This document shows, in pieces, positions 26,338-37,929 of a DNA stretch of 38,200 nt. The translations under genes were made by a program, and so were the position numbers. The notes under the pieces are model-generated. The model did no database searches. It was given only the letters and a program-made list of their open reading frames with translations, and was not told the origin of the DNA. The first letter of the stretch is position 1. Each line of letters begins with the position of its first letter. The DNA is from a virus (Duplodnaviria; Heunggongvirae; Uroviricota; Caudoviricetes), in the IMG/VR virus record IMGVR_UViG_2703719355_000022, positions 1 to 38,200 of that record. One strand, written 5' to 3'.

Positions 26338-28266
26338 TTAAAAGTTATTTACCCACCCACCACGACGCACAGGACGCGCCATAGGACGACGATTAGGTTT
26401 GTGATGAGTGATTGGCTTAGTTTCTTCGATTTGCTCGTTAGAATGTGATTTAGGAGCTTCTACGGTTGCTTCTGGTTCACGATTCAGCTTTTCTTTCATT
26501 GCAATGAGCTTATCCCATGACATTTTTGAAAGAACATAGCGAGAAGCCGCATAGCTATAAACCAGACAGTCGAGCGCCTCGTTTCGTGTCGCACCTGGAT
26601 TTTTTACCCAACGTGTTCCAGTAACAGTACGCTTGATGGATTCACTCAAAAGCTGATCGAGATAATCATCAGGAACGGTTTCTGATATCTCTAAACCAAT
26701 ATGAGGGTTTTCTTTCAAGTTGCGTGTTAATAGCTCACGAATAGCCGTTTTACCCACGTTAACGCCCAACATAAGCAACTCATGACCGCCCGTGGTAGTT
26801 GGTTTCACTGGAATGATTGGAGCAGTACCAGATGAACTACCTTTGATTGCGTGTAAGTTCTTCCACTTACCACCGCAAATACGGTATCCGGCTTGAGTGA
26901 ATCGACCGTTCGATGTATCAAGGAAGCTGGCGAGCATAGGAACACGATCACCCGATACAGTAGTAAATTTGGTTTTATGGAAGTTGATTAATCTGTCCCA
27001 TACAGGAGATTCATATCGTTCACAGTTATGGTCGTAAAAGCTGCGATGATCCAGAATATAAATCTTATCCTTTGCCACGCCCATGATCGTAGTTTCTGCG
27101 CGATCTAATTGCTGGTCAGTACCCGCACACAAGAAAATCACGTCATCAGGGATATTCTCGATAGAAACATCTGTTTTAAGTTCTTCCAGTTCGTTTACTT
27201 CTACTGCCGTTTCCTGATCATCGTATACAGTGCCGAGAACGGTATTATAAAAACTTTGTAAATCAAATGTTTGCCACGCTTGAGAGAAGTCAGAGACACA
27301 TGCTTTGATAGAGCTAAAAGGTGAATATAGACGGCTGATCCAGAATCCTGCTACATCACTTTCACGGGTAGCTCTCCATTCACCTTGTGCAACCGCTCTA
27401 ATGCGATCCCCTTCTGACCAATCAGTCTGGCAATGAGGACACACATAACGGGCGCTTTCAACACATGGCAGATTGCGACCATCCTGATTTTTCCACTCGA
27501 ACTTAACATTTTCCCACTCGATCACCTGGTGTTTCCCGCAATGCGGACAAGGAACAAAGAATTTACGCTGATCACTTGATAACCATTGTTGATTAATCGG
27601 TCCCAGCTTAGTGGTCGGGGTACTGGAAACGATAATTCTTGCTTCATCCCCGAAAGTGGTTGCGCGGTTAGCCGCAAGTGCAATCGGATCGCCCTCTTCA
27701 CTAGCACTGGCAGCATCACATTCATCGAGCAGAATCAACGGGCTGGTTTTTGAACGCAAGGTTGATGGGCTAGTAAGCGATACCATGTAAAGAAAATGAT
27801 TAGTCTTAAGCTGAATCTGACTATTGTTATTAACAGCGTTGCGATCATTCTTGTCGGTGATTGCTTCGCGTAATGCCGGACATGCTTCAATGGCTGGTCG
27901 GATCTTCCCGCTTAGGTACTGAGCGGTTTCCTTCGTGGTTGCTTGGCCTATGATGATATTGCTGGGATCGTTAGCTATCTTATTGAATAATATACCATTA
28001 AGGATGGAAGTTTTGCCGATCTGGGCACTTGTACAAAAAATGTACTTTTTCTTATTCTCTAAGAAAGGAGCATCAATCATGCCTTTCTGAAAGCTGGTTA
28101 ATTTAATTTTAGCGCCAGCTTGTGGTCCATCCACTAGGATCATGTTTTCCTCGCACCATTCAGATGGTAAACGCTTAATTGGCGGTCGGATATGTTTTGA
28201 TACTTCGTTAAAAATTCGCTTGAGTTTAAATTTATTTGAGAGTTTTTTCACCGTGATTATCCTCAT
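26338..28266 (-). CDS. terminase large subunit, lambda gpA family, 642 aa
   Basis: Motifs [29 protein letters not shown] and C-terminal RNEALDC recall lambda gpA; Walker A-like GKTS; first gene of the minus-strand operon. Confidence 0.9.
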
Positions 28267-28321: not shown

Positions 28322-28924
28322 ATGCTAATTAATCAGCAACAAAGAGATGAATTAGAATTAGCCTTGTCTTGTACCGATCATGAATATCGTTTGCCAGTAA
28401 AACATAAGCACTTAAAGACTGATTACACAACATCCGGTTTTAGCCGTGAGGAAGCGAAAGAGATTTTAATAGAATTTTACCGTGATAATGGTTATACAGA
28501 CGTTCACAACTTCTTTAAGAAGCATAGAACATCACATACAGAGTTTCGGAGAGTCCGAGATTGGTTTGATTTTGATATCAAGCGTTATTATCGCATTGAT
28601 GACGGTCCTATCTATCGGTTGCAGTGGAAGCCGATCCGAGAAGTGTTGAAACAGAAGAGATTGAATCACGCAATTACACGCTATCGTAACGTGGCTTTCA
28701 AGAAAGGCTATGGTGATACAAGGGAACTATTCGTTGAACTAGCTAACGTGAAATATAGCCACTATTACAACGATCCTACAGGGTTCTTCGAAGTGCTTCG
28801 CAAGGTTGATATTAGTCGGGGTACATATTATTCACGGCTGAGGAAGTACGGGATTAAGGCAGAGTTCTTTATGTCGGTTGACGACTCACCCATGTTCAAG
28901 ATAAAATCTAAGTCCTCTAAATAA
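28322..28924 (+). CDS. hypothetical basic protein with two helix-turn-helix-like repeats, 200 aa
   Basis: AAGGGGG ribosome-binding motif; two internally similar segments (EILIEFYRDNGY...FRRVRDWF and ELFVELANVKY...YSRLRKYG); Arg/Lys/Tyr-rich. Confidence 0.4.
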   Translation: MLINQQQRDELELALSCTDHEYRLPVKHKHLKTDYTTSGFSREEAKEILIEFYRDNGYTDVHNFFKKHRTSHTEFRRVRDWFDFDIKRYYRIDDGPIYRLQWKPIREVLKQKRLNHAITRYRNVAFKKGYGDTRELFVELANVKYSHYYNDPTGFFEVLRKVDISRGTYYSRLRKYGIKAEFFMSVDDSPMFKIKSKSSK

Positions 28925-28959
28925 TATTGAGAAATCACTATTGTTTGGAGGAAACTACT

Positions 28960-29187
28960 ATGACTACTAAAGCTACTCGCGGTCGCCCTGCCCGTTTTAA
29001 CGCTGAACAGATGGCTGATATTGCCTACGCTTACTATACAGCGGATCGTGGTAAGGAAGCGAAAGAACAGATTCTTAGTGAACATGGGATCTCAATCGCC
29101 CAATTCTATAAGAATATGAAGAAGTTAGACATTAAATTCTATGTTCAGATCGGTGATGGTCAGATCGTAGAAGCAACAGGTTTTTGA
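28960..29187 (+). CDS. small DNA-binding protein with N-terminal GRP motif resembling small-terminase N-terminal domains, 75 aa
   Basis: GGAGG 7 nt upstream of ATG at 28960; N-terminus TRGRPARFNAEQMADI resembles the GRPxxYxPE start of some small-terminase DNA-binding domains; too short for a complete small terminase. Confidence 0.4.
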   Translation: MTTKATRGRPARFNAEQMADIAYAYYTADRGKEAKEQILSEHGISIAQFYKNMKKLDIKFYVQIGDGQIVEATGF

Positions 29188-31868: not shown

Positions 31869-32153
31869 AGTGGAAATCCTCTAAAAGAAAGTGAATCAAT
31901 CTAATATTATTTATAAAGAGAAAATTCTTGTTATTATGGAAAGAGTGGTCTGGTAGAGTCCAAAACTGGTCTGTACTTGAAAGGTGATTGGATTCAGTCG
32001 GGCTAGCCCTCCTTCATAGATTTGATTAAATCATCACCAAAACGAAGAAGTATCTTTATAATATAAGAATCTTTCTTTTGTAGAAATAATAATCGAACAA
32101 GATGGACGCTCCCTGAGCGTCTGCGAAGCATATCTAATTCCTTCCAGTATCAT

Positions 32154-32242
32154 CAAAGTGATCTAGAATCAGTTTGTTTTAAAGTGATTGTAATACCTTT
32201 ATCTTGGAAGTGATTTAACTACCATCTTCAAAGTGATCTTGA
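32154..32242 (+). repeat. four direct copies of AAGTGAT(Y)T spaced 24-26 bp
   Basis: GTGAT cores at 32158, 32184, 32209, 32233; outer copies are the near-identical 19-mers TCAAAGTGATCT(A/T)GAATCA. Confidence 0.6.
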
Positions 32243-32316
32243 ATCATCATGTTAAAATCCCTTCCTGAATGATTCGAAGCAGATTACTCGCGCCCCGCAG
32301 GGCGCATAATATCTTT

Positions 32317-32354
32317 GTAGGTATATTGGTTTGATGGTATGTAGGTATATTGGT
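32317..32354 (+). repeat. direct repeat GTAGGTATATTGGT x2 (24-bp period)
   Basis: Identical 14-mers at 32317-32330 and 32341-32354; preceded by palindrome GCGCCC-CGCA-GGGCGC at 32290-32305. Confidence 0.6.
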
Positions 32355-32408
32355 CTGTAGGTCTGGATCGCTTCTAAGCCCCGTCATTACTGGTTTCCCC
32401 ACTTTGAA

Positions 32409-32662
32409 ACGGGGACGGGAAAGAGACGGGGAAGGGATACCACGGGGACAGGTCGGGGATAACATGGGGATGATACGGGGACACCACGGGGAAAGCATTT
32501 AAAATCATATCCTTACATAAGAATACGCATCTAATACCGGGGATTTTACGCGGGGATGGCGGGGAAACTACCCTAATCCGGGGGATTTTGCTTCCAAAAC
32601 GGGGATGAACGCGGGGACGGTGACGGGGATACATCTTCTAAAGTGGGGATATCGCGGGGAAA
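32409..32662 (+). repeat. G-rich array of at least 16 same-orientation CGGGGA motifs, first seven largely phased at 11 bp
   Basis: GGGGA starts at 32411, 32428, 32444, 32455, 32466, 32477, 32488, 32539, 32552, 32561, 32581, 32601, 32613, 32625, 32645, 32656; flanked downstream by an AT-rich stretch. Confidence 0.8.
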
Positions 32663-32865
32663 CCTTTAAATTCATTCAAATATTTTGATAGAAAATTCTT
32701 GTATATTATTTAACCAAAAAATCATCAAAAATCGCTGTAACTTAATGATTTAAAAGGGATTATCAAAAGGTCGCCGTGCTATAATAGGTTATAAAGGTTG
32801 ATAATCATTATTCGCCATTTTCACACAAAAATTTTGATAGCCTTTTCTCGCTTGGGTCAAGTGTG

Positions 32866-32894
32866 TTGACTTCTGTCAAGGATTATTTTATACT
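32866..32894 (+). promoter_or_regulatory. sigma70-type promoter (TTGACT-17-TATACT) reading into the plus-strand early genes
   Basis: -35 at 32866-32871, -10 at 32889-32894; flanked by GTCAA/TTGAC half-sites at 32856-32879. Confidence 0.55.
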
Positions 32895-33029
32895 TTTTCT
32901 CGTTGGTAGGGGTTGAAATTTTCAAAACAGTCCCCATATAGATGATAAGCAAGATTTTCTCTCTACTAAATACATGTGAGAAATGATTGTTCACTTCTGA
33001 AAATCTCCTGATTCACTGTTAATTAATAC

Positions 33030-33058
33030 AGCACTGGTTAGATATACAGTGCTTTTTT
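33030..33058 (+). terminator. hairpin plus T-run (AGCACTG-N10-CAGTGCT-TTTTTT); terminator or attenuator
   Basis: 7-bp stem followed by six T; a similar hairpin CCACTG-N11-CAGTGG-TTTT at 33117-33145. Confidence 0.5.
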
Positions 33059-33236
33059 GGTTGAATAATGTACGAATTGATTAATTATTAATCTTCTCTT
33101 TAGCAATTCGTGCTCCCACTGATCGGATATACAGTGGTTTTACAGGGTTTTCTGAAATGACTTTTATAAATAGAAGTATCAAGGGCGAAAAGCTCTTTTT
33201 ATGAGAAAAAATAATCCACATTGTAGAGGATGTAAC

Positions 33237-33419
33237 ATGGCCAGAACTGTTAAATTTACTCGCGAGATTATGTTAGAGAAAGCAAAACGCTACTTTGAAC
33301 TGACGCCGGGAGTGAGGATTGAAGAGTGGTTTAAAAATGAAGGCATCGATAAATCAACCTTCCATAAACTCTTAAAGAAATATGAAATCAAGGTGAAGAT
33401 TGAAGCTACCGTTTGGTAA
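33237..33419 (+). CDS. hypothetical small protein, 60 aa
   Basis: ATG at 33237 with GAGGA upstream (track start 33201 has no ribosome-binding motif); basic helical protein. Confidence 0.4.
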   Translation: MARTVKFTREIMLEKAKRYFELTPGVRIEEWFKNEGIDKSTFHKLLKKYEIKVKIEATVW

Positions 33420-33518
33420 TCAACTTTGACTGAGAATTAAATTATGAAACTTTTAACCAATAAAAAAGCCCCCTTGCGGCAACAAGGAGGCTTCTACTTA
33501 ACATAAGGAATTACTACA

Positions 33519-34532
33519 ATGAAACAAAATAACTTCTCTATTACCGTTTACAGCAACACCGCAGACACCGCAAAATATCAGTACGATGCAGATATCGAAA
33601 TTCGTAACTATGGCAGCAACGAAGCCGACGAATTAACTATTGGCACTAATATTTATAAAGAAGAATCTATCGATTCTCTGTACACCACTCTCTATCATGC
33701 TGGTTCCGACTGGAAAAAAGAATACCGTGGTTTAGAGCGTAAGAAAGCTACTTTGAAAGCAATGGTTAAACCAGACCAGCGCGAAGTATATGCTATCGCT
33801 TACAAGAACGGCGACGAATCCTATGTAGTGTCTATCCTGCAAGATGAAGCTGGTAGCCTCTGGGGTAACATGATCCACGCTTCCCGCCGCGATGCTAAAG
33901 GCCGTTTCGTTAATGGTAAAGTTAAAAACTTTGCTCTGGCTTCTAGTGTTGTTGGTGCATGGTCTGATTGTGCTCACGGTGAGAAATTCAATATTTCTTT
34001 CTTCGTTTCCAACAAAGCTAAACTGAATGTTAACGCTGTTGATAAGGCAGTATGGAAAGAAACCACTAAAGAAAAAACCGTTTCCAACTACGAAGAAGAA
34101 TTACAGCAGCGTGATATTCAGATTCTGTCTGATGCGCATCGTGCTTTTGAGCAACGTCTTGCTGAGATGGAACGCAAATTCGCTATGCTGATGGAAGAAA
34201 ACATTAGTCTGAAAAAAGAAATTGAAGTTCTTGAAATCCGTGTAGAAGAACTGGAAGCAAAAGAAGTTAAAGCGCCGGAAGTTAAAGAAGTTGAAGCGGT
34301 AGCAGTAGTTCCGGCAGCTACCCAGGAAGAAGCGAAAGAAGAAAAAGAAGCACCGGAGGCGGTTACTGTTGATCAGCCGATTATCAAACCAGCGTTAACC
34401 GTAGTTTCTTGTGATATTTCTGATGCCAGCTTAAACAACCTTCTTGATGTAGAAGAAGGATATAAACCATATGTTCCAACCATTCCGGCTATGGATGAGA
34501 TGGACCGCGAATTACTTGATTTTGCAGCTTAA
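33519..34532 (+). CDS. hypothetical protein with central coiled coil and acidic C-terminal tail, 337 aa
   Basis: AAGGAA ribosome-binding motif; heptad-like region around residues 190-250; C-terminus MDEMDRELLDFAA; function unknown. Confidence 0.5.
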   Translation: MKQNNFSITVYSNTADTAKYQYDADIEIRNYGSNEADELTIGTNIYKEESIDSLYTTLYHAGSDWKKEYRGLERKKATLKAMVKPDQREVYAIAYKNGDESYVVSILQDEAGSLWGNMIHASRRDAKGRFVNGKVKNFALASSVVGAWSDCAHGEKFNISFFVSNKAKLNVNAVDKAVWKETTKEKTVSNYEEELQQRDIQILSDAHRAFEQRLAEMERKFAMLMEENISLKKEIEVLEIRVEELEAKEVKAPEVKEVEAVAVVPAATQEEAKEEKEAPEAVTVDQPIIKPALTVVSCDISDASLNNLLDVEEGYKPYVPTIPAMDEMDRELLDFAA

Positions 34533-34559: not shown

Positions 34560-35561
34560 ATGAACATTTACGCAATCGACAACAAAAAACTCAACAAAGA
34601 AGAAACTGAATCACTGGTAAACGTTCGTCTGACCTCCACCTTTGACGGTGGAGTTACCGCAAACTTCAAATTCACCGATAATCTTAACGGCGGTGATTAT
34701 TATCAGGAATTGTTTTCTATTCAGAATCCCCGCGCTAAAGATTCTGAGAATGTCATTAAAGAAATCATGAAACACGGTATCAAGCTGACGGTAGAAGAAC
34801 ATACTATGATTAACAGCTTCATCAATAAAACTGGTGATCGTCTGGTTTATTCTGTGGTTGGTTATGAACTTAGTGGGTTTTACGATGAAGAGAAGAAAGG
34901 CGTTGCTATGGTTGTGATTAGCCGTGGTGGCGTCGCTACTGTCTTCGCTTTTGGTAATGTTGTTCAGGGTACGCCGAAAACATCAAACGTTTATACGATC
35001 CGCATTAAAGAAAATAGCTATTGCCGTTATAATCTGGCTTTGGTGTCTACCGACGATAACAGCGTTGAACTTAGCGACATGAAATCCTACACCTTCCCTA
35101 TCGATGTGGAAGGCAATTTAGGAAAAACTGTGTTTCAATTCTATGTGACAAAACCTAAAGTTCCAGCATGTATTGAAGACCACGACCATCAAGTTTGTGC
35201 ATATAAAGCCAATCTGGAAGCGATTAAGGCCAAAGAGAAAGCAGAGCAGGAAGAACGGGATCGCCCACGTAAAGAAGCAGAGGCACAAGCAAAACAGCTT
35301 CTAGGCCGATTTAACAGCATGAAGACTAAGATCAAGAATGCTAAAACGTGGGAAGATGCGGTTAAGTTCTATCATCAAGCTAATATTCTTTTGGTTGAAG
35401 TAGAAGAAGCGCGGGATCTGTGGGCTAGCTTAGATAAGAAGTACGCGCAACGTAGATCGCCAGCAACCTTACAGCCGATTGATGAACTGTGCAAACTTCC
35501 TAAGCCAGAAATTAAACATGAAATTAAGAAAGCAAGACCTACCCTTCGTTTGGTTGCTTAA
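34560..35561 (+). CDS. hypothetical protein, 333 aa
   Basis: AGAGGAA ribosome-binding motif; Lys/Glu-rich helical C-terminus; no recognised domain. Confidence 0.5.
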   Translation: MNIYAIDNKKLNKEETESLVNVRLTSTFDGGVTANFKFTDNLNGGDYYQELFSIQNPRAKDSENVIKEIMKHGIKLTVEEHTMINSFINKTGDRLVYSVVGYELSGFYDEEKKGVAMVVISRGGVATVFAFGNVVQGTPKTSNVYTIRIKENSYCRYNLALVSTDDNSVELSDMKSYTFPIDVEGNLGKTVFQFYVTKPKVPACIEDHDHQVCAYKANLEAIKAKEKAEQEERDRPRKEAEAQAKQLLGRFNSMKTKIKNAKTWEDAVKFYHQANILLVEVEEARDLWASLDKKYAQRRSPATLQPIDELCKLPKPEIKHEIKKARPTLRLVA

Positions 35562-36278: not shown

Positions 36279-36836
36279 TTACGACACATCAAATTCATCG
36301 TCTTCTTGTTCTTCTTCCGGTTCTTCCTGCTTCACTTCCTCATCTTCTGAGTATTCATCGTAGGCATCAAGATCCGGTGAAATCATAATATCCCCGATCT
36401 CATTCAAACGAGCGGAAATGATATCCTTCAATGTTTCTTTCAAAGTACGCTGATCCGTTGCAGCTTCCATAATTTTTAGAGTGTCTACCGTCGCCATCTG
36501 CATCATGGTCTGGCGTACATCACCACAAAATCCGGCTAGAACTGTTTCTACATAACCTACAGGAATCAGATCATTTAGTTCGGTGCGGTTCTTAAGTTCG
36601 ATGGCGTCCGCCTCCCCTCTCGCCTTTCTTAATCGTTCTTGTTGGATCTGCGCTTGTACATCAACTTCCCTAAGTGGGCTGATTATGTTTTCAATTACCC
36701 AGGTGATTGCTCTATCCCGTGGACAACGGCGGGTATTCGTATTATACGGAAGACCACGATCACGCCATTTCTGAACAGCCGGAAGGGAATACCCATACAT
36801 TTTAGATAATTCGGTTAAAGTTACTTCTTGCGTCAT
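36279..36836 (-). CDS. terminase small subunit, lambda Nu1-like, 185 aa
   Basis: N-terminal TLTELSKMYGYSLPAVQKWRDRGLPY and central ARGEADAIELKNR...YVETVLAGFCGDV match my recollection of lambda Nu1; ATG at 36836 with AGAGGA upstream; acidic C-terminus. Confidence 0.7.
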   Translation of the reverse strand: MTQEVTLTELSKMYGYSLPAVQKWRDRGLPYNTNTRRCPRDRAITWVIENIISPLREVDVQAQIQQERLRKARGEADAIELKNRTELNDLIPVGYVETVLAGFCGDVRQTMMQMATVDTLKIMEAATDQRTLKETLKDIISARLNEIGDIMISPDLDAYDEYSEDEEVKQEEPEEEQEDDEFDVS

Positions 36837-37169
36837 GAAACTATCCTCTGAGCTAAAAATATGCGTAATTGTATTTAGACGAAATACGCAATATAACGGC
36901 CTATAACGCAATTTAAGAAAATCCCATGTGACGGGGCGTTGAGAAGTGATTTAGCTCGTTGTAGGGCTTGTTTGGTGGCTTAACTAAACCAATTTGAAAA
37001 AGGCACAAGCGAGATTTAAACCGCGCCGGGCAAAACACGCCCTCTTTTACCACTTATCACAGCACCTTTCTGTTGTCAAGTCTTTTTTATCGAATATTTT
37101 AAATTTTTTCATCTTTTTTCTCGTGCATTCATCCGTTTTTTTCTCGGTCAAAATCAATGACTTGACCCG

Positions 37170-37197
37170 TTGACACTGATCCGGTCATCAATATAAT
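37170..37197 (+). promoter_or_regulatory. consensus sigma70 promoter (TTGACA-16-TATAAT) upstream of the lipoprotein gene
   Basis: -35 at 37170-37175, -10 at 37192-37197; GGAGG ribosome-binding motif before ATG at 37314. Confidence 0.6.
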
Positions 37198-37313
37198 CGG
37201 TCACACTTTGACCATGTAAGGTGTGTTTCAGATGTGAGGATTAACGATAGATATTTACATAAATAAAGATGTGGTTAATCCATTCATCAATTTAATTCTC
37301 TGGAGGATATTCT

Positions 37314-37886
37314 ATGTTTAAAAAGATTGGTGTTATTGCTGCGGTTGTTCTGTTATCTGGTTGTGCGTCTATGGCTGAACTTGAAAAGCGTAGTGATGGT
37401 CTTTCGGCTTATCCTGGCATCAAGTATGAACAGTTTCAGGGGTATGAGATTGTAAGTAGCTATACAACTACAAAGGCAACTCGCCCATATAACAAACTTA
37501 AAATGCAATCCTGTCTCTATGACACTGTGCGTAATGACATTATGGTGCATACTGACGCATTCAATGAGATTAAAGATTTAGAAACTGGTGGTCGTATTGT
37601 TGAACGCGCCCGTTCTAATAGTGCTATTTTTAGTGGCAACTTCGAGCAAACTATTACCTTGCGTACTATTGTAGGTGACACTCCCTATACTCAATATGTG
37701 AAGTATAAAGGTATTGCTTTACCGTCCGGTGATAAGACACAGTTCACATTTACCGGATTGAGTGTTAAGCCTAAATCTGGTGGCGAGCATCCACTATGGT
37801 CACGTAAAACAAATAGCCCAGAAGAAAGTATTAAAGAACTTGATAAGCTGGCGGATGAGATTGCCGATTGTCTTAATGATGAATAA
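37314..37886 (+). CDS. lipoprotein (signal peptide with lipobox LLSGC), 190 aa
   Basis: N-terminus MFKKIGVIAAVVLLSGCAS: basic n-region, hydrophobic core, lipobox Cys; no Asp at +2; own promoter and terminator. Confidence 0.7.
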   Translation: MFKKIGVIAAVVLLSGCASMAELEKRSDGLSAYPGIKYEQFQGYEIVSSYTTTKATRPYNKLKMQSCLYDTVRNDIMVHTDAFNEIKDLETGGRIVERARSNSAIFSGNFEQTITLRTIVGDTPYTQYVKYKGIALPSGDKTQFTFTGLSVKPKSGGEHPLWSRKTNSPEESIKELDKLADEIADCLNDE

Positions 37887-37903
37887 AGAATAACTGATTA
37901 TAT

Positions 37904-37929
37904 AGCCTCGCTAAATGCGGGGCTTTTTT
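37904..37929 (+). terminator. rho-independent terminator after the lipoprotein gene
   Basis: AGCCTCGC-TAAAT-GCGGGGCT hairpin followed by TTTTTT. Confidence 0.6.

Follow-up and report, generated by a model that had tools for sequence, protein, structure and literature searches.

The two hairpin-forming palindromes in the leader of a prophage operon of E. coli are most likely LexA binding sites, and they adjoin a predicted site for the host stress activators Rob, MarA and SoxS. Host stress, rather than antitermination, probably switches the operon on, and we lean, with modest confidence, towards the view that the predicted LexA operators make this three-gene orphan operon SOS-inducible. LexA binding, the promoter that it would control and the role of an adjoining activator box were inferred from the nucleotide sequence of a 38.2-kb stretch of DNA (the window) and its relatives. 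The LexA reading is based on the match of the sites to the SOS box, their ranking in the window, their clustering and their substitution pattern. A preliminary description of the same region had proposed either a small RNA ending at the first hairpin or an early operon dependent on antitermination. The anatomy on which it was built was borne out (a strong promoter P1, a leader without another consensus promoter, and repeated palindromes with T-runs), while its terminator/antitermination mechanism proved to be the weaker reading. With these three features together, it is very probable that transcription across the leader is under regulation.

Prophage, host and operon

The window is an E. coli prophage. 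Among 5,426 complete chromosomes of E. coli, 35 matched the leader region (750 bases), within the prophage and with 81–97% identity; no plasmid did. No DNA-level match to the element was obtained in the sequenced-phage collection (near and distant search modes) or in the plasmid collection, and the leader element was restricted to E. coli/Shigella chromosomes. The prophage was present in less than 1% of the complete E. coli genomes, the strains being ETEC, STEC, O55:H7 and commensal. Its gene content includes a serine integrase, a helicase, and lysis, tail and head genes, with a large terminase of the lambda-GpA type on the minus strand of the prophage. In ETEC4090, the prophage ended inside ycdX, right after a gene for a Nu1-like small terminase.

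The promoter and the hairpins are located in a 1.37-kb non-coding stretch (31869–33236). To its left are minus-strand genes, including one for a Rha-family regulator, and to its right is the plus-strand operon. The first gene (33237–33419, plus strand), annotated as a hypothetical protein, encodes a small helix-turn-helix-like protein of 60 aa and is preceded by the ribosome-binding site GAGGA (33226–33230, plus strand). The other two genes code for orphan proteins of 337 aa (33519–34532, plus strand) and 333 aa (34560–35561, plus strand). The operon proteins belonged to no Pfam or PHROG family, and their homologues were found only in E. coli/Shigella; species-representative genomes queried with the 60-aa protein yielded no relatives in other species. 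An AlphaFold model had a mean pLDDT of 54, too low for a fold search. The window gave no recognisable CI-type repressor, and the prophage codes for several small helix-turn-helix-like proteins along with the Rha-family regulator.

Upstream of P1, 16 same-orientation copies of (C)GGGGA form an array with partly 11-bp spacing (32406–32660, plus strand), which holds 16 of the 25 plus-strand GGGGA motifs of the window. It is probably a binding array of a phage DNA-binding protein and is separate from the hairpins. A 46-aa minus-strand open reading frame within the leader (33081–33221) was rejected as coding on account of frame-breaking indels in relatives.

For comparison, 34 unique relatives were assembled from E. 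coli genomes, IMG/VR and metagenomes; at about 90% or more identity, they give the comparison low power. The metagenome scan yielded 10 loci, seven of them new.

Promoter P1 and the leader hairpins

P1 is a sigma-70 promoter (TTGACT-17-TATACT, 32866–32894, plus strand) that matches the consensus at 10 of 12 positions. Its earlier placement was confirmed: with 14.8 bits it was the top sigma-70 match in 32700–33260, where the runner-up on the plus strand scored 8.3 bits. Most relatives carry TTGACA-17-TATACT, and P1 is kept in both of the leader alleles described below. Transcription is predicted to start near 32901, and the leader from P1 to the first gene is approximately 335 nt long. The preliminary description had found no convincing promoter after the hairpins, and this holds for promoters of the sigma-70 consensus: no site in 33060–33236 exceeded 7.5 bits, a score reached 419 times across the window.

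The 5′ end of the P1 transcript contains a GGGG...CCCC stem with a 19-nt loop (32909–32935, plus strand). The alternative allele keeps this stem and the length of its loop, but not the loop sequence. Enclosed by this stem is the palindrome TTGAAATTTTCAA (TTGAAA-T-TTTCAA, 32913–32925), which had been noticed before; it is present but not conserved, position 32924 taking all four bases among the relatives.

Hairpin 1 (33030–33058, plus strand) consists of the stem AGCACTG/CAGTGCT (33030–33036/33047–33053), a 10-nt loop and a T-run at 33054–33058. Stem, loop and coordinates agreed with the preliminary description; only the T-run differed, having five T after the stem (six when the last stem base is included). 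Hairpin 2 (33116–33141, plus strand) has the stem CCACTG/CAGTGG (33116–33121/33132–33137) and a 10-nt loop, followed by TTTT (33138–33141) and then A. This hairpin is real, but it had been placed one base too far to the right, with a loop of 11 nt and an end at 33145. The two hairpins are identical at 21 of 25 positions (84%), T-run included. They share the 20-mer CACTGNNNNGATATACAGTG, of which these are the only two copies in the window (0.01 expected), as well as the extended palindrome CACTG-N10-CAGTG and the 3′ loop half GATATA. Three features were absent from the preliminary description: a third CTG-N10-CAG, an invariant 17-mer between the hairpins, and hairpin 3 (33181–33201, plus strand). 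The latter has a 6-bp stem, a GAAAA loop and a T-run (−6.7 kcal/mol), and lies approximately 35 nt before the start codon, just 5′ of the ribosome-binding site, at the mosaic boundary between leader and gene.

Probable LexA boxes in the leader

As the leader is found in E. coli chromosomes, the E. coli LexA motif, with the consensus TACTGTATATATATACAGTA (PMC8072944), can be applied to it. Three sites in the leader have the CTG-N10-CAG layout of E. coli SOS boxes. Box 0 (CACTGTTAATTAATACAGCA, CTGT-N8-ACAG) is at 33014–33033, box 1 (CACTGGTTAGATATACAGTG) at 33032–33051 as the core of hairpin 1, and box 2 (CACTGATCGGATATACAGTG) at 33117–33136 as the core of hairpin 2. Boxes 0 and 1 overlap by 2 bp. 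The right half of the consensus, ATATACAG, is perfect in both box 1 and box 2.

The sites were ranked by the heterology index (HI), whose values are approximate, the matrix having been rebuilt from a set of 25 LexA sites of E. coli. In a scan of the 38.2 kb, the three best sites were box 1 (HI 4.85), box 0 (7.6) and box 2 (11.1), all inside 123 bp. When the window was shuffled 50 times, the best-site HI had a mean of 10.1 and a minimum of 6.0, and box 1 beat every shuffle. Published functional LexA boxes have HI values of about 1.5–13; the peak for sequences that bind LexA in K-12 is at 7.3, and the mean for SOS-dependent prophages is 7.5. Box 2, with HI about 11, is a weak site.

The position of the boxes is unusual. 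They are at +113 to +235 relative to P1, the only strong promoter. SOS boxes usually overlap the −35/−10 elements of a promoter, and no promoter of at least 9 bits overlaps the boxes here. A local promoter over boxes 0 and 1 (TTAATA-16-TACAGT) was considered and rejected, its −35 element varying among the relatives. LexA boxes distant from the start codon are known, that of tisB being 236 bp away; we know of no established mechanism in which LexA acts as a roadblock. The T-run that follows both hairpin boxes also speaks against the LexA reading, being dispensable for LexA and required by a terminator.

Substitutions among the relatives

Neither box 1 nor box 2 had any change in its CTG or CAG among the 34 relatives. 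HI ranged from 4.4 to 8.6 for box 1 and, with one exception, from 9.6 to 11.2 for box 2. Box 0 had HI 6.4–10.6 in most relatives, and its CAG was changed to CGG in 5 of 35 sequences. The flanking CA and TG vary among the relatives, unlike these two trinucleotides of boxes 1 and 2. The segment 33070–33149 was the most conserved in the leader, far above the downstream coding sequence.

Outside the LexA core, uncompensated stem breaks were found in five sequences for hairpin 1 and in three for hairpin 2, and two further stem changes were G-U-compatible transitions. The sole compensatory pair, 33030/33053 at the base of hairpin 1, went from A-U to G-C through G-U. This double change lengthens the hairpin 1 stem while destroying the CAG of box 0, which counts against the LexA reading. 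RNAalifold and pair counts, applied to 30 unique leaders of low variation, gave no informative covariation. Taken together, the substitution pattern fits a DNA site with a CTG/CAG core better than an RNA stem, although it is not decisive.

The mar/sox/rob-type box and a candidate promoter

A 20-mer resembling a mar/sox/rob box (GGAGCACGAATTGCTAAAGA, 33097–33116, minus strand) directly adjoins SOS box 2. Its 17-mer core, CTTTAGCAATTCGTGCT (33098–33114), was invariant in all relatives, those with the second leader allele included. The reverse complement of the 17-mer, AGCACGAATTGCTAAAG, matches the mar/sox/rob consensus AYNGCACNNWNNRYYAAAYN (PMC2064960). Both recognition elements, GCAC and YAAA, are present with their spacing intact, and the core matches GCAC-N7-GCTAAA of the consensus. 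The window marbox departs from the consensus three times, in each case at an outer position (1, 2 and 19), compared with one mismatch in the copies of T1-like phages, and its orientation is reverse relative to the operon.

Downstream of the 17-mer, TATAAA (33165–33170, plus strand) lies inside TTATAAATA and is a candidate −10 element of a promoter, P3. It is conserved in both alleles and has no −35 element. TTATAAATA follows the 17-mer after 50 nt in this allele and after 60 nt in the other, one helical turn more. According to Martin et al. 1999, as cited in PMC6900184 and PMC10268841, class I marboxes are reverse, centred 53–73 bp upstream of the start, and accompanied by a good −35 element. 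If transcription from P3 started 7 nt after TATAAA, the marbox would be centred at about −71 (−81 in the other allele) and box 2 would span −60 to −41. With such a start, the layout would resemble mar/sox/rob class I promoters in the orientation and distance of its box. It differs from them in that no −35 element is recognisable, a LexA box fills the gap between marbox and core promoter, and the binding of Rob, MarA or SoxS is a prediction. TATAAA may mark a putative activator-dependent promoter.

A second leader allele

A second allele, with an otherwise unalignable leader, was present at loci L017, L178 and L179 and on many contigs of viruses. Its strong promoter, equivalent to P1, is preceded by CAGGGGCAAAA repeats in place of those of CGGGGA. 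When scanned for LexA sites it gave none, the best HI being 14; it contains two good marboxes and one weak one. The 60-aa protein encoded after it is 92% identical to that of the window, so the palindromes are not autoregulatory operators of this protein. At the position of hairpin 1, the second allele has a different small hairpin followed by U5, which counts against the LexA reading. Hairpin 3 is retained with T6, its stem and loop sequence being changed, and T5–6 follows it across both alleles. The hairpin with U5 and the retained hairpin 3 keep alive an RNA-level role for some of the elements. The two leader alleles would be interchangeable, one offering LexA boxes and one marbox, the other marboxes only.

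Competing explanations

In the reading of the preliminary description, the hairpins are intrinsic terminators or attenuators: most RNA from P1 would end at hairpin 1 (approximately 155 nt), hairpin 2 or hairpin 3, and the operon would need read-through or an antitermination factor of the phage. We regard this as unlikely. The strong P1 with no consensus promoter after it agrees with such an arrangement, as do the folding z-score of the whole leader (−2.0), the A-U to G-C change at the base of hairpin 1, and the presence in the second allele of a hairpin with U5 at the same place and of hairpin 3 with its T-run. The hairpins themselves are poor terminators. Their stems, of 7 bp (hairpin 1) and 6 bp (hairpin 2) with four G-C pairs each, reach −9.5 and −6.4 kcal/mol, where the clear terminators of the window have −14 to −21 kcal/mol; both loops, at 10 nt, exceed the 3–8 nt of a typical terminator. 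On a classical terminator discriminant, which serves for ranking only, the clear terminators scored +34 to +36 and hairpin 2 −30.8. Hairpin 1, with its 5–6 U, was marginally positive (+4.4) in the window, but negative (−7.4) in the commoner version found in most relatives. A terminator would have a run of at least 5–6 U directly after its stem; for hairpin 1 the run is 4–5 T long in most relatives, some of the others having TTATT or a stem with a mismatch, and hairpin 2 has only 4 T. A terminator scan of the window listed neither hairpin, and Rfam gave no match to the whole window at gathering thresholds and only chance-level matches (E above 2) to 32700–33300. The tRNA/tmRNA search found nothing, and the leader held no nut-like, put-like, boxA/boxB or Q-binding element. 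Termination would also leave unexplained why a perfect LexA half-site lies in the loops and why a CTG-N10-CAG without a T-run overlaps hairpin 1. As RNA, the hairpins with their U-runs are at most weak attenuators. A short RNA of approximately 155 nt may still end at hairpin 1, given its T-run and marginal score in the window and the hairpin with U5 at its place in the second allele.

Alternatively, CACTG-N10-CAGTG could be the operator of a dimeric repressor encoded by the phage, its likeness to the SOS box being coincidence or mimicry. Such a repressor might be sought among the several small helix-turn-helix-like proteins and the Rha-family regulator of this prophage; the window showed no CI-type repressor, and the sites do share CACTG/CAGTG and GATATA. 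This explanation is nevertheless quite improbable, because the variable CA/TG flanks around a fixed CTG/CAG are the pattern of LexA, the top three ranks were assigned by a LexA matrix built independently of the phage, and the small protein of the operon is nearly unchanged in the allele that lacks the boxes. It is more improbable still, to the point that we give it very little credence, that the repeats are the remnant of a duplication without any regulatory role and that the operon is expressed constitutively from P1. The near-identity of the hairpins, which extends into the T-run, and the lack of both repeats in the second allele are what a duplication would predict, but 33070–33149 would then hardly be the most conserved part of the leader, nor would a low HI be kept across all relatives. 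An unregulated near-consensus promoter in front of early-type prophage genes also seems unlikely.

Proposed regulation by LexA

According to the LexA reading, LexA dimers bound to the boxes would hold expression of the operon low in the lysogen. Repression could take the form of a roadblock to P1, bound LexA obstructing RNA polymerase that arrives from this promoter, or of occlusion, both of the adjoining activator box and of the DNA upstream of a weak promoter nearby. In the latter case, LexA at box 2 may cover the marbox together with the upstream region of P3 (−10 element TATAAA, 33165–33170). After DNA damage, RecA-stimulated self-cleavage of LexA would allow the operon to be expressed. 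If this is true, an unusual operator layout puts an orphan three-gene operon under the direct control of the SOS repressor of the host.

A more elaborate version, which we consider doubtful, makes the leader an integrator of host stress. The palindromes would then have a dual use, as LexA operators in the DNA and as weak terminators in the P1 RNA, and LexA at box 2 would compete with an activator of the Rob/MarA/SoxS type. Were this so, the early operon would fire only under SOS, oxidative, bile or antibiotic stress would raise its expression further, and each of the two alleles would couple induction to a different stress regulon of the host. As the identical activator box serves as a class II promoter element throughout the T1-like virulent phages, a general regulator exploited by phages would then be found in Rob/MarA/SoxS or in a factor that the phages share.

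Relation to known systems

LexA-controlled modules are known from several prophages, such as tum (p95) of coliphage 186, antC of N15, the antirepressors of Gifsy/Fels-2, and rstA of CTXphi, and in GIL01 LexA itself maintains lysogeny. The leader resembles these modules in having boxes of the E. coli type ahead of a small operon, within the regulatory DNA of a prophage, and in the predicted SOS-inducible expression without cleavage of a phage repressor. It differs in several respects. In the known modules the box overlaps the promoter, whereas here three boxes lie 113–235 nt downstream of P1, the hairpin boxes are followed by T-runs, and a mar/sox/rob-type box is interleaved with them. The operon proteins, moreover, are orphans without likeness to known antirepressors. 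'SOS-dependent prophages' with LexA boxes have been described as a class (PMC12527982). LexA control of prophage modules is thus already known, and the present arrangement varies it by placing three boxes far inside a leader, next to a marbox, and by having an allele in which marboxes replace the LexA boxes. If the LexA reading is correct, sites for host stress regulators (LexA, Mar/Sox/Rob) would be exchangeable cassettes in the regulatory leaders of phages. In leaders of enterobacterial phages, AT-rich palindromes with T-runs should be checked against the SOS box before a terminator is called.

Colicin operons have double 20-bp LexA boxes that overlap by 1–2 bp and are located immediately after the −10 hexamer. 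The overlapping boxes at 33014–33033 and 33032–33051, downstream of a promoter, are similar, except that they are more than 110 nt downstream of it. With the lambda PR′-tR′/Q and N/nut systems and HK022 put, the leader shares a strong promoter, terminator-like hairpins before the genes and the possibility of a short leader RNA. Unlike in lambda and HK022, there is no Q-binding element, boxA/boxB, put-like pair of stem-loops or Rfam match. Compared with lambda tR′, the hairpins are much weaker and the genes downstream are not late genes.

The 17-mer in other phages

The exact 17-mer was found in 81 IMG/VR stretches, with several copies per genome, mostly of T1-like virulent Drexlerviridae. In approximately 30 distinct intergenic contexts, the 20-mer ended 18–19 bp (mostly 18) upstream of a −10 hexamer (TATAGT, TATTAT, TATATT or TATAAT), with a variable spacer sequence and no −35 element. 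Shigella phage Sd1 had eight sites, against 0.09 expected, and seven of these had a −10 hexamer at 18–19 bp. Class II marboxes are forward, centred near −41 and without a −35 element (PMC10268841), and the boxes of the T1-like phages show this geometry (forward, about −41, no −35). In species-representative genomes (596 Gb), the 17-mer occurred 66 times, with 69 expected by chance, and it is therefore not a host chromosomal motif. A literature search found neither the 17-mer nor a link between Drexlerviridae and Rob/MarA/SoxS. Instead of Rob/MarA/SoxS, a phage-encoded protein, e.g. of the Rha family, is a possible binder of the 17-mer; the Rha-family proteins of Sd1 and of the prophage are 38% identical in the Rha domain.

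Two other identities of the 17-mer were discarded. A promoter of a T7/T3-type polymerase, suggested by a resemblance to CACTAAAG, was rejected because the carriers, T1-like siphoviruses, have no annotated polymerase of this type and a sigma-70 −10 element follows at a fixed 18 bp. A boxA/boxB reading of TTCTCTTTAGCAA with its hairpin of 5 bp and 5 nt was dropped, since the motif occurs in both orientations to the genes and usually upstream of the start site. The T1-like phages, a very common phage family, carry several promoters of the class II marbox type per genome.

Promoter region and upstream repeat array

The -35 hexamer of P1 (TTGACT), the strong sigma-70 promoter ahead of the leader and the three-gene orphan operon, stood back to back at 32855-32880 with a second, leftward -35 (TTGACC), whose -10 (CAAAAT) is at 32836-32831. 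The P1 -35 was contained in the 14-bp palindrome TTGACAACTGTCAA in most relatives. P1 and the leftward elements may form a divergent promoter pair with an operator.

Upstream of P1, an array of 16 (C)GGGGA repeats (32406-32660) was observed, all in one orientation and some at exact 11-bp spacing; it holds 16 of the 25 plus-strand GGGGA occurrences of the whole window. The second leader allele (loci L017, L178, and L179) has CAGGGGCAAAA repeats in place of this array. The (C)GGGGA array has the look of iterons or of a centromere-like array that a phage-specific protein would bind, and may be the real control of lysogeny or replication.

Hairpins flanking the first gene

A small hairpin followed by T5-6 is located at 33181-33201, approximately 35 nt 5' of the start codon, with equivalents in L017, L178, and L179. 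Both leader alleles keep this hairpin, each with its own stem and loop sequence, and it lies exactly where the relatives pass from a conserved leader into a gene that is highly divergent. Among the conserved RNA features of the leader, this hairpin is the most terminator-like.

Between the first (33237-33419) and second (33519-34532) genes of the plus-strand operon, a strong terminator was identified on the minus strand (33464-33495; 14-bp stem, -20.6 kcal/mol, T6). It is predicted to function for leftward transcription only, the plus strand having no U-run, which suggests that it would be the end point of an antisense transcript.

Terminase genes, paralogues, and lipoprotein unit

The large-terminase gene (26338-28266, minus strand) and the Nu1-like small-terminase gene (36279-36911, minus strand) are 8 kb apart, with the regulatory region and the orphan operon in between; the latter gene sits at the prophage end, adjoining the attachment site. 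The 60-aa product of the first operon gene has paralogues elsewhere in the prophage (28322-29187): an 86-aa paralogue is ~30% identical to it, and a GI-x-STFYxxLKKYxIK-type motif is common to it and a 200-aa protein.

The unit at 37170-37924 comprises a gene for a 190-aa lipoprotein with a weakly Cor-like N-terminus, driven by a promoter of perfect consensus (TTGACA-16-TATAAT), and a clean terminator after the gene. In E. coli strain ETEC4090 the prophage stops short of this unit, which may therefore be a moron or flanking DNA.

Mar/sox/rob-type boxes in T1-like phages

The near-perfect mar/sox/rob box ATAGCACGAATTGCTAAAG occurs in multiple copies per genome in T1-like virulent phages (Drexlerviridae). 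The loci with this type of box were L019-L099 and L177 (Shigella phage Sd1, positions 3948, 8009, 11758, 14191, 36969, 40938, 43254, and 44616); the window copy is at 33098-33114 (minus strand). No paper on marbox-type promoters in T1-like phages was found in the literature. In these phages, a strong -10 hexamer lies 18-19 bp (mostly 18 bp) downstream of the box and the -35 is absent, as in class II marbox promoters. The arrangement suggests that many T1-like phage promoters would be served by host Rob, MarA, or SoxS, or by a phage factor of the same specificity, for which the Rha-family protein of T1-like phages is suggested as a candidate.
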